64,000 bases of DNA from a virus (IMGVR_UViG_3300027804_000001:64001-128000), one strand, 5' to 3'; positions 36,473 through 54,296 are shown, counted from the first letter of the stretch. The notes: a model not told the origin generated them from the sequence alone. Made by a program: numbers and translations.

Positions 36473-37015
36473 ATGATTATGAAAAATTCAATGAACACAA
36501 CCGAAGTAAACATTACAAAGAACGAGTTATTAACTTTGTTAATGTCAGTAGACAAACCGACCTTTACTAACATTCTTTACCAAATTAAAGTAAAGATGAA
36601 CAAGACCGACAACCCTTATTACGAGAGGGTATTCAAGACAACCAAAGGAAACTTTTTCATTGGGGGTACTTACGAGGATATGGTAAACGAGAGAATGAAG
36701 AAAGAGGGATTGACACCTAACTTTGTGAGTGAGGAAAACAATGTAGGGGAACACATTACAAAGTGTGTTCAGTTCAATGAGAAGTACAACAAACATTACC
36801 TACAATACTTTTCTTTTGAAAATTCAATTCATTCAACCGAATATGAATTTGAGGGAAGAAACATTGATAGAGAAATGTTCAAGTCCTTTGAGGTTAAGAA
36901 GTCCGAGAGTTCAAGACAACCCCAAGACAACAAACACCAAGTACAAAGTTTGACTATTGACAACATTAGGAAAATAACTTTGAACGGAACGAAGTACAAT
37001 GTAGTTGAGGGGTAA
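36473..37015 (+). CDS. Early hypothetical phage protein
   Basis: 180 aa; first gene of the + strand array, followed by a terminator. Confidence 0.8.
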   Translation: MIMKNSMNTTEVNITKNELLTLLMSVDKPTFTNILYQIKVKMNKTDNPYYERVFKTTKGNFFIGGTYEDMVNERMKKEGLTPNFVSEENNVGEHITKCVQFNEKYNKHYLQYFSFENSIHSTEYEFEGRNIDREMFKSFEVKKSESSRQPQDNKHQVQSLTIDNIRKITLNGTKYNVVEG

Positions 37016-37040
37016 CAACCCCTTTCCTTTGGAAACCAAA

Positions 37041-37070
37041 AGTCCCTTACGAGAGTAGGGGATTTTTTTT
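37041..37070 (+). terminator. Intrinsic terminator
   Basis: TCCCTTAC-GAGA-GTAGGGGA plus T8. Confidence 0.8.
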
Positions 37071-37350
37071 TGTCCAAGAACCCACCTTCGTCCCGTTGGG
37101 AATAGTGAACGGCCCCAAAAAAATACACACAAAAAAAATTCAAAAAAAATTTGGAGGATTTTTTTCCTTCCCGAATAATGAGGGGCCCGTATTACAAGAA
37201 AATGAAAAATTTACAACCTTGTATTTTTTTTGAATAATGACAGGCCCATGTATTTTTGTCATACACGAACTGAGCCGTTCATTAATTTTCTCCGACAGAT
37301 GTCCCACAAAAAAAAATAAAATATTTTATTGTGTAATGAAATAAATGTTA

Positions 37351-37358
37351 TACATTTG
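37351..37358 (+). promoter_or_regulatory. Bacteroidota -7 promoter box
   Basis: TACATTTG, 25 nt upstream of the ATG at 37383. Confidence 0.7.
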
Positions 37359-37382
37359 TACTCAATTAAAAAATATAATAAA

Positions 37383-37631
37383 ATGAACAAAGAAAAAGTA
37401 ACCGAGATTGTCAATGAAGTTATTAACCAAAGGTTAGAACAACTAATGGAAGAAATGTCCACCAACGAGTTCGTGGAAATGATTTGTGATATGGTACACG
37501 ACCAAGTGGGTTTGGATTTGGAAGATGAGGACAAAGTAGAGGAAGTCCGAGAAATTATTGGTAGTAGGGTTATACCTTTACTGACCAAAGTGTGTGAGTA
37601 TGTCATTGGAGTAGACCTACCAAAGGACTAA
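37383..37631 (+). CDS. Small acidic early protein
   Basis: MNKEKVTEIVNEVINQRLEQ...; start moved downstream of the promoter. Confidence 0.75.
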   Translation: MNKEKVTEIVNEVINQRLEQLMEEMSTNEFVEMICDMVHDQVGLDLEDEDKVEEVREIIGSRVIPLLTKVCEYVIGVDLPKD

Positions 37632-37653
37632 ATAAAAGTTCCCCCACTTTTAG

Positions 37654-37688
37654 ATACCCTTACAAGAAATTGTAGGGGTATTTTTTTT
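37654..37688 (+). terminator. Intrinsic terminator
   Basis: ATACCCTTACAA-GAAA-TTGTAGGGGTAT plus T-run. Confidence 0.85.
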
Positions 37689-37849
37689 GACCACCTGATT
37701 TACCATCCGGGGTTCATGGAATAATGAATGGCTCCAATCGTATTACAGGCCGTTCACTATTCCCCATCCGGATCACGGTGAAAAAAAAAGTTTCATTCTT
37801 TCCTTATGTTTAGTACCCAATTCACCTCTATATAATAAACAACACTATT

Positions 37850-38002
37850 ATGAAAAATGAATTGAACGAGTTATTCTTATTGATTGAGAATGAAATGGAA
37901 GAAGTACCGACAACTGATTTGTTTGATGAGTTCTTTGATGAACTTGATGTTGAGTACATTAATAGAGATTGGGAAACTCGTTACGGGTTCCGTCCTCTGT
38001 AA
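37850..38002 (+). CDS. Very acidic 50-aa protein (not in ORF track)
   Basis: MKNELNELFLLIENEMEEVPTTDLFDEFFDELDVEYINRDWETRYGFRPL; 15 of 50 residues are D/E. Confidence 0.6.
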   Translation: MKNELNELFLLIENEMEEVPTTDLFDEFFDELDVEYINRDWETRYGFRPL

Positions 38003-51703: not shown

Positions 51704-51791
51704 TCAGGATCATGCTGTTCGAATATGACCGGCCCAAAAAAATATTCTAGAAAAATTTGGAATATTCCAAAAACTTATTAACTTTACAACT

Positions 51792-52097
51792 ATGGATTAC
51801 TCTAGACAACTTGTGGAGATAAGAAACAGTCTTCACTGTGATATTGTCCAAGAAGCATGTCACAAGAATTTTGTTATTAATGGTAGTAGTGATGGTGTTC
51901 TACTCCTGAAGAAACCAATTAGTGTTGGTGGCTTTACGGTCGGGAGTGTTTGTTGTGAGACGGGATTAATATTATCTACAGATAACGAAAAGACTATTCC
52001 CTACCAAGTATTATCGATAGAAGACCTATCTGTAATACACGAAAGTTTGGTCCAAGCAAAAAACTATACATTCACATTAAATGAACAACTTGTATGA
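51792..52097 (+). CDS. Hypothetical protein
   Basis: 101 aa; promoter TTTG (51756) - 19 nt - TAACTTTA. Confidence 0.7.
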   Translation: MDYSRQLVEIRNSLHCDIVQEACHKNFVINGSSDGVLLLKKPISVGGFTVGSVCCETGLILSTDNEKTIPYQVLSIEDLSVIHESLVQAKNYTFTLNEQLV

Positions 52098-52288
52098 CAA
52101 ATCCATTTATCATGAAGATGTGGGTTAAAGCCCAAATCAGGGACCTCGAGATGGAATCACAGGTATGTATTACAGAGGCTGATGCATACAGGATTCAGGG
52201 AAAGTTAGATATCCTGAAAGAATTCTACGACGACTTCAACTTGGAGTCCATAGATGAAAAAGAAATCATTATTCACAATAAGTTTTAA
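52094..52288 (+). CDS. Hypothetical protein
   Basis: 64 aa; ATGA overlap. Confidence 0.65.
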   Translation: MTNPFIMKMWVKAQIRDLEMESQVCITEADAYRIQGKLDILKEFYDDFNLESIDEKEIIIHNKF

Positions 52289-52291
52289 ATT

Positions 52292-52879
52292 ATGGAATCA
52301 AAAGAAATTATTTTAGGGACTGAAGTTATGGTAAGTGACCCCTGTTACACCGAACCCACATGGTGTCAGGTGAAGTTAAAGAATGTTAAACCTGGTAAGT
52401 ACTATGCCTTTCATAAGGAGCACGATGCAGGTGATTGGGGTGTTAGGTCATCCATGATTATGGTGATTCACGAGGAACACATTCTTGACCAGCTCAAATG
52501 GAAACTCCAACCAGGTGAAGTAGGTGTTGACTCTGGTCAAGCAGGTATATTCTCATATGAGACATACCGTAAGGATGGGATTGAAATGGATATTCCATCA
52601 GTTGGATACGACGGGAAGAATTTTGACTGGCTTGATTCCATCTCGAGGGAGGATGAGGTTGGAGAAGATTGGTATAAGAAGATGTGCAAGATGACATTGT
52701 CCGAGATTGGATGGGGAACATATTCGAACGGTATAGTTTCTCGTAGTGGATTTGGTGATGGTGGATACCAACTATTCACAGCAAAGAGTGGAAGAAAGAT
52801 TGTAGCAATGGCTGTTGATTTTGCTGTGGAGGATGGGGAGTTTATTAACTTCGACTGGTACAGAGAAGTGTACATATAA
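52292..52879 (+). CDS. DUF4241-like protein
   Basis: VMVSDPCY, VGVDSGQAGIF, SGFGDGGY. Confidence 0.75.
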   Translation: MESKEIILGTEVMVSDPCYTEPTWCQVKLKNVKPGKYYAFHKEHDAGDWGVRSSMIMVIHEEHILDQLKWKLQPGEVGVDSGQAGIFSYETYRKDGIEMDIPSVGYDGKNFDWLDSISREDEVGEDWYKKMCKMTLSEIGWGTYSNGIVSRSGFGDGGYQLFTAKSGRKIVAMAVDFAVEDGEFINFDWYREVYI

Positions 52880-53180
52880 TACTTCAGGGATCAGGAATCC
52901 CGGATTATGACTGGCTTTAAACATATAACGACATGAAAAAATTATTTGAGAACTTGCATTATCAGTGGGACTATGTAGTTGGATACATTATGTGTAACCC
53001 ACATTACCTCCACAGGTACCACACCTTTATGTACAAGAAGTGGGGGGAAAGATACTGCACAAAAAAAGAGCTCCAAGATTACCTTGAGAGCATGAATCGA
53101 GAATTATGACTGGCCTATATACCGATCTGATCCTGATCTGATCAGGATGGTAAATTATGACCGGCCCAAAACCATAGAAC

Positions 53181-53606
53181 ATGATAACATTATTGAAACC
53201 ATCACAGTGGACCAACTTAGGATACATTATCTTGGGTATAGTACTTGCACCGTACACCAATTGGTTAACCTTAGTAGTCCCCGTATGGATGATGATAGAA
53301 ACATCCTTTACTAGGTATGAAATCTACGACGACCGAATCATATACCGAAGAGGAGTCTTTACTGTAACCACGGACGAAATCCTACTCTACAGAATTAAGG
53401 CCATCAACCTTAACGAGCCATTCTTATATAGACTCGTCGGTATCTCCAACCTGAGTATAATCACCTCGGATAAGTATGTCAATGAGATTACCCTCAAAGG
53501 TGTCCCCGTGGGTATGAACTTCAGAAACGCCCTAAGGGAGTTAGTCGAAGAGAACCGTACCAAGAAGGGTGTGAAAGAGTTTGACCTGTACGAACTGTCA
53601 GTCTGA
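53181..53606 (+). CDS. Bacterial PH-domain (bPH_2) membrane protein
   Basis: Two TMs then RYEIYDDRIIYRRGVF....DEILLYRIKAI....PFLYRLVG. Confidence 0.8.
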   Translation: MITLLKPSQWTNLGYIILGIVLAPYTNWLTLVVPVWMMIETSFTRYEIYDDRIIYRRGVFTVTTDEILLYRIKAINLNEPFLYRLVGISNLSIITSDKYVNEITLKGVPVGMNFRNALRELVEENRTKKGVKEFDLYELSV

Positions 53607-53732
53607 CCCCGGATGGTAAATTATGACTGGCTCGTGTATTACATGGGTTATTTAAAAAACCAAAAAAAAGTTGCCTATTATTTTTTTTTACGGATTATTA
53701 AGGTTATAATTTTTATATAAACTTAATAATAT

Positions 53733-53939
53733 ATGCCAAGTACAAAAACCATGAAGACGACTCGTACTAAGAGTACTGGTCGTAAAACAGTTACTACGTA
53801 TGTACCTGTATCTGACAACATCTACCACGACGGTTTCTCTTACCGTGTACGTGTGAGTGTATCAGGAACAAAGTACTCTAAGAACTTCAGTTCTCGTAAG
53901 AAAGCTGTTCAGTACCGTAACGAACTTTTGGGTAAGTAA
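53733..53939 (+). CDS. Small basic AP2/integrase-arm-like DNA-binding protein
   Basis: NIYHDGFSYRVRVSVSGTKYSKNFSSRKKAVQYRN (three strands plus helix); strongly biased codons (CGT/ACT/TAC/AAC); own terminator at 53965-53994. Confidence 0.6.
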   Translation: MPSTKTMKTTRTKSTGRKTVTTYVPVSDNIYHDGFSYRVRVSVSGTKYSKNFSSRKKAVQYRNELLGK

Positions 53940-54296
53940 TCAATATACTCACCACAAAAATTCTAAGGTCTTCCGAAAGGGGGACCTTTTTTTTGTTTAA
54001 CCTCTACGTGTATTACTTAAACAATATGTACATCTTACACTGTGAATTATGACCGGCCTGGGCCAGTCTTATTTTACTTACGAACCGTTGTTAAAACAAC
54101 TATATAATGACTGGCCCATATGTATTACGGGCCTCCCTTCGGTCGGCCCTTCATCCCGTTGCCAGACAAAATCATAGTATGGTGTATTACTAATGTTGTT
54201 TGGCAAGTCTATTATTACGGGGACACTCCGTGTCCCCTTCATCCCGTATGTATGACACATTATAGTGGACCATATGTATGACACCTGACCCCCTGA

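Follow-up and report, generated by a model that had tools for sequence, protein, structure and literature searches.

A candidate early-gene island with host-type promoters in an uncultured freshwater jumbo phage

Why a viral genome should carry a long array of small genes, divided into short units that have promoters and terminators of their own, is the question raised by a 64,000-nucleotide (nt) stretch of DNA, IMGVR_UViG_3300027804_000001:64001-128000 (the window; positions are counted from its first letter). The window corresponds to positions 96178-160177, read on the minus strand, of a linear virus record in IMG/VR that has 180,831 bp and a completeness of 54%; all record-wide counts given here cover these 180,831 bp (~181 kb) only. 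The array occupies 36.15-54.65 kb of the window and consists of about 18-20 units of 1-5 genes each; every plausible gene within it (~35, all small) lies on the + strand. The best explanation, which we consider probable, is that it constitutes the early-gene island, read by the host polymerase, of an uncultured jumbo phage from freshwater, which probably infects a member of the Bacteroidota.

The record has a G+C content of ~31% and codes for tail fibres, many glycosyltransferases and radical-SAM enzymes, and sequence of the phage is contained in freshwater metagenomes of many studies; all 20 runs containing it were available as contigs. Searches of GenBank phages gave no nucleotide match and no protein match to the first gene of the island (36473-37015), and searches of IMG/VR with the flank proteins and with the exact promoter string found nothing. 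The coding fraction is 72% in the island compared with 88% genome-wide, because the island spacers are 215-420 nt long.

Promoters, leaders and terminators of the units

A -33 element TTTG and a -7 element TAnnTTTG, spaced by about 19-21 nt, are the established promoter consensus of the Bacteroidota. The pattern TTTG-N18-21-TAnnTTTG has 19 matches in the window (3.67 expected), a number reached in none of 100 shuffles, and 14 of the 19 are + strand matches at 37.2-50.8 kb. In its strict form, TTTGG-N19-TAnnTTTG, it occurs 13 times in the record, always on the + strand and 11 times inside the island (38.1-50.8 kb). A first-pass annotation of the window had listed 14 promoters of the Bacteroidota primary-sigma type; 12 of these positions are exact + strand matches to TTTG-N18-21-TAnnTTTG, and the -33/-7 geometry is satisfied by them and by two sites with one mismatch (41077 and 51757, TTTA for TTTG in the -7 box). 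The poly-A tract ascribed to each promoter is likewise borne out, with A runs of 7-11 upstream of 13 of the 14 sites. The proposed short A-rich leader is found at 11 promoters, where 20-25 nt of 50-70% A, devoid of a Shine-Dalgarno sequence, precede the ATG; it does not apply to 50780 and 51757, where the box ends merely 4-5 nt 5' of the ATG. These two sites are therefore doubtful, being either leaderless starts or not promoters.

Terminator-like sites are enriched about three-fold between 35.5 and 55 kb (30 compared with 10.7 expected), and 17 of the best are located on the + strand 3' of genes, in agreement with the stem-loop terminators noted at first pass. The co-oriented units of that annotation stand; their number had been given as ~15 and their gene content as 1-4, for which we count about 18-20 units and 1-5 genes.

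Genes outside the island are preceded by another motif. TATTTAT is the top 7-mer in the 70 nt upstream of 195 non-island genes (34 of 195 compared with 3.5 expected), mostly 0-40 nt 5' of the ATG, whereas the top upstream words within the island are AATTTGG and ATATTTG. The claim that TATTTAT drives no island gene holds, since one of its two + strand copies there is intragenic and the other lies within a promoter spacer.

Two consensus promoters stand in tandem 5' of the ParB-like gene (47165-47337), and the 110-nt transcript from the first of them (47165) contains a small hairpin at 47233-47249. A leader word, CGGGGACAGG followed after a short gap by CTGAACAA, is located 5' of this gene (47378-47402) and of gene 48904 (48872-48896), and the same leader is seen 5' of the ParB-like homologue of a distant relative (L025, 8905-8935). 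It may be a control element in the 5' untranslated region.

Metatranscriptome contigs from two studies coincide with single units (36471-37048, 40326-40903, 43891-44756 and 47355-48171), and the first gene is also covered by an RNA contig at 36475-37031. In both studies the RNA contig of the ParB-like unit (47355-48171) has the same ends, beyond which the DNA contig extends; the RNA contig starts 18 nt past the -7 box and stops just short of the terminator hairpin, which hints, if weakly, at a monocistronic mRNA made from the 47306 promoter. There are nearly no RNA contigs at the flanks (35.0-35.7 and 54.3-55.0 kb) and some on island genes, a difference not used as evidence because missing cover proves nothing.

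Relatives, sigma factors and the predicted programme

Arrays of the same kind are present on contigs carrying homologues of the first gene. There are 14 promoters in 13 kb of L012 and 30 between 142.5 and 167.1 kb of G001 (287 kb), G005 has the same array as G001, and nine and five promoters are found in G002 (311 kb, 93% complete) and G003 (324 kb, 97% complete), respectively; control patterns give 0-2 matches per strand and genome. The genome of the window is collinear with G003 and has its island in the same slot, and in every long contig the island is internal and occupies this syntenic slot. Its size ranges from 18 to 33 kb among relatives; from one border mark to the other it spans 18.3 kb in the window, compared with 18.7 kb in G003 and 32.6 kb in G001. 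Homologues of the island proteins are found solely in other islands, 10 of the 35 have none at all, and gene order is partly shuffled between islands. The island is conserved and hyperplastic across a clade of uncultured jumbo phages. A 673-kb record with terminal repeats (G010) was rejected as an informative relative, being merely distant and lacking the border element.

G001-G003 each encode two proteins bearing Sigma70_r2, and neither an RpoB-like nor a T7-like RNA polymerase was detected in these three genomes. A sigma gene was not found in the sequenced part (181 kb, completeness 54%) of the window's own genome. The sigma-70-family proteins of the relatives are ~233 and 270 amino acids (aa) long, and their genes in G003 are at 70601-71302 and 311920-312732; G001 and G002 have the equivalents. 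On the minus strand, G002 (67-91 kb) and G003 (176-188 kb) have a further, less dense group of host-type promoters with the common word TTTGGAATATTC, which sits past the right border of the island and is oriented towards it.

The TATTTAT motif elsewhere, the phage sigma proteins and the lack of a detected phage RNA polymerase together make a programme like that of phage SPO1 the best reading. Unmodified host RNA polymerase would transcribe the units directly after DNA entry, the A-tract serving as an UP-like element in each unit, and the island products may act on the host (takeover, anti-defence). Genes preceded by TATTTAT would be read later, probably by the host core polymerase together with one of the two phage-encoded sigma-family proteins known from the relatives. 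The repeated terminator-spacer-promoter modules probably serve in addition as recombination substrates, by which whole cassettes and single genes are gained and lost quickly.

The island proteins were compared with Pfam (34 proteins) and the ten largest also with PHROGs. Matches were obtained to DUF932, DUF6915, DUF6891, bPH_2 and a ParB-like PHROG, those to DUF4241 and DUF1737 being sub-threshold; no recombinase or integrase gene was recognised in these searches. The predicted structure of the first gene product is without a match in the PDB.

Spacer boxes, strain turnover and borders

The spacers contain a further repeated element, the box TGAMYGGCY, often as an inverted pair between the terminator and the A-tract. 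Inside the island lie 33 of its 34 copies in 181 kb, and it is present in 16 of the 18 long spacers. The 5' extension of the box is conserved (roughly CAYRTGK, then AWTA), the members of a pair are spaced 4-35 nt apart and the distance from box to -33 element is 42-91 nt. Each related lineage has a different box at the corresponding place, in 20-45 copies per island: TCCAGTAAA in G003 (45 copies), CCCAGTAA in L012 (42 copies), GCCACAGAAA in G001 (24 copies), TTGTTTGGCA in G002, L029 and L023, and ACTGCCAAAAC in L025, which has in addition a DnaA-box-like word at the -33 position. We know of no parallel to such lineage-specific spacer boxes or to the conserved single-copy border elements described below. 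Our best guess is that the boxes are sites for a factor insulating or shutting off early transcription; the null explanation is concerted evolution of the repeated spacers.

Three other candidate roles were rejected. The ParB-like protein is not a convincing reader of the boxes, as G003 has 45 boxes yet no ParB-like homologue. Box pairs are unlikely to be RNA hairpins, since the half-sites are non-complementary at degenerate positions and the loops vary from 4 to 35 nt, and the distance of 42-91 nt to the -33 element does not suit a fixed-distance activator site.

Unlike the lineage-specific boxes, GTATGACA and GTATTAC are present in the islands of all lineages, in 8-19 copies each. Their sites in the window are at 37250, 38835 and 54240-54390; GTATTAC fills the right border and, within box pairs, those loops that are long. 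Owing to the TGAMYGGCY boxes, the words GGCC and RGCY have 2.5-4x the density in the island that they have outside it. GpC is depleted genome-wide (observed/expected ~0.5) and lowest at 36-38 kb (0.12, 7 GpC in 2 kb), a pattern that may reflect restriction avoidance. One spacer holds a low-complexity tract (38736-38777, variants of GTACCTGA), at which many foreign contigs and loose ends occur in all four runs; the depth of 139 at this tract is inflated by these foreign contigs.

Cassettes and genes turn over between strains. The island is HYPERPLASTIC: insertions and deletions (indels) of whole genes or whole cassettes separate strains that are 95-97% identical. The strains compared, L061-L065, are contigs encoding an identical DUF6915 protein, with DNA 95-97% identical, and four indels of genes or cassettes set them apart from the window. 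L061 lacks gene 43290-43646, a 1216-nt three-gene cassette is inserted in unit 12 of L061 and L065, an extra 101-aa gene follows 49482, and L061-L063 lack two genes (50138-50749); run X5 lacks these two as well and shows the deletion independently, as a joint from 50131 to 50753. Further joints of that run, among them 37075 to 39071 and 42069 to 44139, were left out of account, their sides being short or their likeness 90%. The inserted cassette carries its own box pair, promoter and terminator. A 50-nt duplication flanks it; this comprises the terminator T run together with spacer and reaches no further than the beginning of the box. The remaining three indels are at gene borders, not at boxes.

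The unusual non-coding borders that had been pointed out at first pass are real and conserved in relatives. The left element, ~110 nt long and present once per genome in G000-G003, aligns across eight phages with ~40 invariant columns; the first-gene proteins of the same eight share merely 34-60% identity. At the right border G001 has the core TGGGTCGTGATTCGGACAAGGGACAATCC without change and G003 has it nearly unchanged, G000, G001 and G003 contain one copy each, and the region 54124-54318 folds far better than shuffled sequence (z = -6.6). The last gene (53733-53939, 68 aa) always adjoins this border in relatives; its product is 54-72% identical over the whole alignment and 62-78% in local tblastn matches, and the predicted structure, a beta-sheet plus helix, has a weak, non-significant likeness to Int-arm/AP2 domains. 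An Rfam search found nothing at either border. An inverted pair within the right border (54160-54215), TTGCCAGACAA and TTGTTTGGCAA, is of the spacer box type of G002, L029 and L023. A replication origin at the borders was rejected, as in G003 the cumulative GC skew traces nothing but gene orientation.

The exact DnaA box TTATCCACA occurs at only three places in the window (36357, 36369 and 54464). The pair at 36357-36377 is 3 nt apart and reads on the - strand. In L012, tandem DnaA boxes lie directly 5' of the first-gene homologue, which is 5 kb inside the array, in L025 DnaA boxes take the -33 position of several promoters, and the right-border box is not conserved in relatives; the DnaA boxes therefore belong to promoters or cassettes. 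As marks of the island ends they were rejected, because the pair moves with the first gene.

Features of the candidate early-gene island and its surroundings (window coordinates)
Feature	Position	Strand	Contents
Left border	36120-36320		TTTTTCCGGAAAAATTTC palindrome (36179-36196), C run, TATATAAGGGGGGATACGGGAGGGGGG, further G runs
Early-gene island (candidate)	36.15-54.65 kb	+	Array of about 18-20 units
Exact promoter matches	38100, 38810, 39199, 40272, 41515, 42178, 43844, 44911, 47165, 47306, 48815, 50780	+	TTTG-N18-21-TAnnTTTG
Unit 1	36340-37067	+	Two DnaA boxes; A/T-rich tract; gene 36473-37015; terminator 37038-37067
First island gene	36473-37015	+	180 aa, unknown fold; 65 homologues
Units 2 and 3	37068-38040	+	Weak promoter 37329-37358; genes 37383-37631, 37850-38002; terminators 37652-37683, 38013-38040; boxes 37106, 37273-37281, 37725, 37748-37756
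Units 4 and 5	38041-39033	+	Promoters 38100-38131, 38810-38840; genes 38155-38529, 38862-39029; terminators 38552-38577, 39012-39033; boxes 38050, 38624, 38700/38711
Units 6 and 7	39034-40951	+	Promoters 39199-39230, 40272-40303; genes 39252-39470, 39475-39822, 39825-39979, 40326-40907 (phrog_6186); terminators ~40014-40039, 40928-40951; boxes 39077, 39126/39139, 40113, 40160/40201
Units 8 and 9	40952-42063	+	Promoters 41077-41107 (-7 box TAccTTTA), 41515-41546; genes 41132-41353, 41572-42015; terminators 41373-41403, 42035-42063; box pairs 41005/41024, 41443/41454
Unit 10	42064-43719	+	Promoter 42178-42209; five genes 42230-42565, 42562-42762, 42759-42980, 43001-43306, 43290-43646; terminator 43698-43719
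Unit 11	43720-44789	+	Box pair 43764/43775; promoter 43844-43875; DUF932 gene 43897-44736; terminator 44762-44789
Unit 12	44790-47031	+	Box pair 44830/44841; promoter 44911-44942; genes 44965-45222, 45236-45634 (DUF6915), 45624-46286, 46304-46984; terminator 47006-47031
Unit 13	47032-48207	+	Box pair 47072/47083; tandem promoters 47165-47196, 47306-47337; ParB-like gene 47406-48152; terminator ~48182-48207
Units 14 and 15	48208-50802	+	Promoter-like site 48311-48344; gene 48368-48613; terminator 48668-48691; box pair 48737/48748; promoter 48815-48846; genes 48904-49464, 49507-49827, 49838-50134 (DUF6891), 50136-50477, 50480-50755
Distal part	50780-53988	+	G+C richer, without A-tracts; promoter-like sites 50780, 51757; genes 50816-51205, 51221-51703, 51792-52097, 52094-52288, 52292-52879, 52933-53109, 53181-53606 (bPH_2), 53733-53939; single boxes 51726, 52908, 53107, 53158, 53624, each 14-100 nt 5' of genes; terminator 53965-53988
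Right border	53989-54650		Box pair 54050/54061; box 54108; nested inverted repeats 54124-54318; core TGGGTCGTGATTCGGACAAGGGACAATCC 54409-54437 (29 nt); DnaA box 54464-54472
tRNA-Ile gene	58666-58739	minus	Anticodon TAT

Alternative explanations and known systems

The proposal that the island is the first-transcribed module, read by the host polymerase, is well supported, if indirectly, by the near confinement of the promoters to the island, the other motif elsewhere, the sigma factors of relatives and the conservation in relatives; the takeover function that the first-pass annotation gave to its genes is a prediction. Several observations weigh against an early-gene island. The attribute 'early' is a prediction from promoter logic, and the probable host is deduced from a promoter consensus of the Bacteroidota type. 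The last 3 kb (51.7-54.0 kb) have no convincing host promoters, terminators or A-tracts, and no family with a demonstrated host-takeover or anti-defence role was found for the 34 proteins searched in Pfam or the ten largest searched in PHROGs. Boxes are not conserved beyond their surroundings, with 3.8% of positions changed between two strains compared with 3.7% in spacer (n=106). The sigma genes of the relatives lie outside the island and no host-type promoter is seen directly upstream of them, so the link from island to cascade is not closed.

Two alternatives place the island at an end of the packaged DNA. It had been suggested at first pass, and we think it unlikely, that the island is a collapsed direct terminal repeat of ~18 kb as in T5 or SPO1, with the borders as repeat ends; virions would then carry two copies. 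The host-takeover and pre-early modules of SPO1 and T5 do sit in long terminal repeats, both borders are non-coding and better conserved than genes as in the T5 repeat regions, the DnaA pair 3 nt apart recalls the T5 injection-stop region, and two IMG/VR contigs (L027 and L029) and one Logan contig end within the left border. However, these contig ends differ in position by ~100 nt and fall within homopolymer runs of G or C, which suggests breaks in the assembly and not a defined terminus; the DnaA pair belongs to the first-gene cassette and is mid-array in L012, the DnaA box of the right border is unconserved, and the island is of unequal length in the relatives (18-33 kb). Nothing positive speaks for two copies; each record has a single copy of either border element, and all long contigs have the island in an internal position, although a collapsed repeat would look alike, so that assemblies cannot decide. 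Contig word depth in run X1 was 7.7 (left flank), 7.5 (first gene), 13.1 (last island contig) and 14.0 (right flank), with no step at the right border; since this depth does not measure copy number, it was counted neither way. Somewhat less improbable, but still unlikely, is that the island is the unrepeated leading end of a non-permuted genome, in which the left border would be the physical terminus (a short repeat, or cos/pac) and the right border the end of the first-entering DNA, in the manner of T5 first-step transfer or the T7 leading end. This would account for the location of all strong host promoters in one block oriented away from the left border, for conserved, single-copy borders, for the folding of the right one (z = -6.6 compared with shuffled sequence) and for the tendency of contigs to break at the left one. 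The breaks are, however, explicable by the G runs, assemblies from several samples continue through both borders, and packaging information is lacking, no terminase having been found in the 181 kb examined. We give an equally low standing to a composite of these ideas as to the collapsed repeat: an island that leads a non-permuted genome into the cell, perhaps with a copy at either end, with the borders as terminus and entry or packaging stop and the boxes read by a co-evolving insulating or shut-off factor, would amount to a T5-like two-step programme with a tunable operator code in a new phage clade.

An alternative of another kind, which we regard as very unlikely, treats the island as a platform for cassette exchange. 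The inverted box pairs would be attC-like sites of a site-specific recombinase, and the promoters would make captured genes self-sufficient at any stage of infection. The boxes occur in 16 of 18 long spacers, are restricted to the island and are lineage-specific (20-45 copies per island), a box marks the exact start of the cassette inserted in L061 and L065, and the model of the conserved last gene product is weakly Int-arm/AP2-like. On the other hand, no recombinase gene is recognised in the island, three of the four strain indels are not at boxes, and the half-sites are non-complementary with a spacing of 4 to 35 nt; the duplication flanking the insertion is upstream of the box and, at 50 nt, long enough for ordinary homologous recombination of the kind seen in T4-type phages.

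As an early-gene island, the array would represent an early regulon, defined by sequence, for uncultured jumbo phages of about 300 kb. The ~35 small genes in its ~18 predicted host-polymerase units would be prime candidates for host-takeover and anti-defence functions, and the two promoter classes with the phage sigma genes predict a temporal programme. The conserved borders and lineage-specific boxes are new cis elements, and the strain comparisons show that gene shuffling mediated by regulatory cassettes, until now a matter of T4-like phages, operates in a distant phage group too.

Integrons are defined by an adjacent tyrosine-recombinase integrase, attC sites and promoterless cassettes. The island resembles them in its co-oriented cassettes, separated by imperfect inverted repeats of variable length, and in the rapid turnover of content; it differs in that no integrase is recognised, the boxes are unlike the attC core, and each cassette has its own promoter and terminator. 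With the T5 pre-early region and its injection-stop region, where paired DnaA boxes are 3 nt apart (bioRxiv 10.1101/866236), the island has in common that about 5-10% of the genome holds early genes, here predicted ones, that the bounding regions are untranslated, rich in repeats and palindromes and better conserved than genes, and that DnaA boxes are paired at the same distance. Here, however, the DnaA pair is at the promoter of the first gene (proximal) and not at the distal border, and no homologues of dmp, A1 and A2 are recognised, which refers to Pfam (34 proteins) and PHROG (ten largest) matches and not to a direct comparison with T5 proteins.

The likeness to the hyperplastic regions of T4-type phages concerns the mode of evolution. 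There, composite terminator/early-promoter modules (PeSL) occur in hyperplastic regions (PMC2839356, PMC4122927). Repeated composite modules are likewise found between small orphan genes here, plasticity is limited to a defined region between conserved blocks, and indels or replacements between close strains end in modules, as seen in the 50-nt duplication at the L061/L065 insertion. T4 has several such regions at scattered places, the present phage a single island between conserved borders. At 215-420 nt the spacers of the island are much longer, they hold in addition a boxed inverted repeat between terminator and promoter, and the promoter consensus is of the Bacteroidota type.

To our knowledge, neither island-specific spacer boxes nor conserved border elements have a counterpart in SPO1. 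There is no sequence homology to SPO1, and host phylum and promoter consensus differ. SPO1's host-takeover module comprises 26 small genes, early and highly expressed, within a terminal region of 12.4 kb (PMC6873191). It lies in a proven terminal redundancy, a location that is hypothetical for the island, and is expressed early by the host polymerase before a phage sigma cascade takes over. Module and island alike are compact blocks of small genes in many short operons under strong host-sigma promoters, and most of their products have no homologues. In the island such genes are clustered in short operons with strong host-type promoters and terminators, and a sigma cascade may be reflected in the two sigma-family genes of each of G001-G003 and in TATTTAT before non-island genes.

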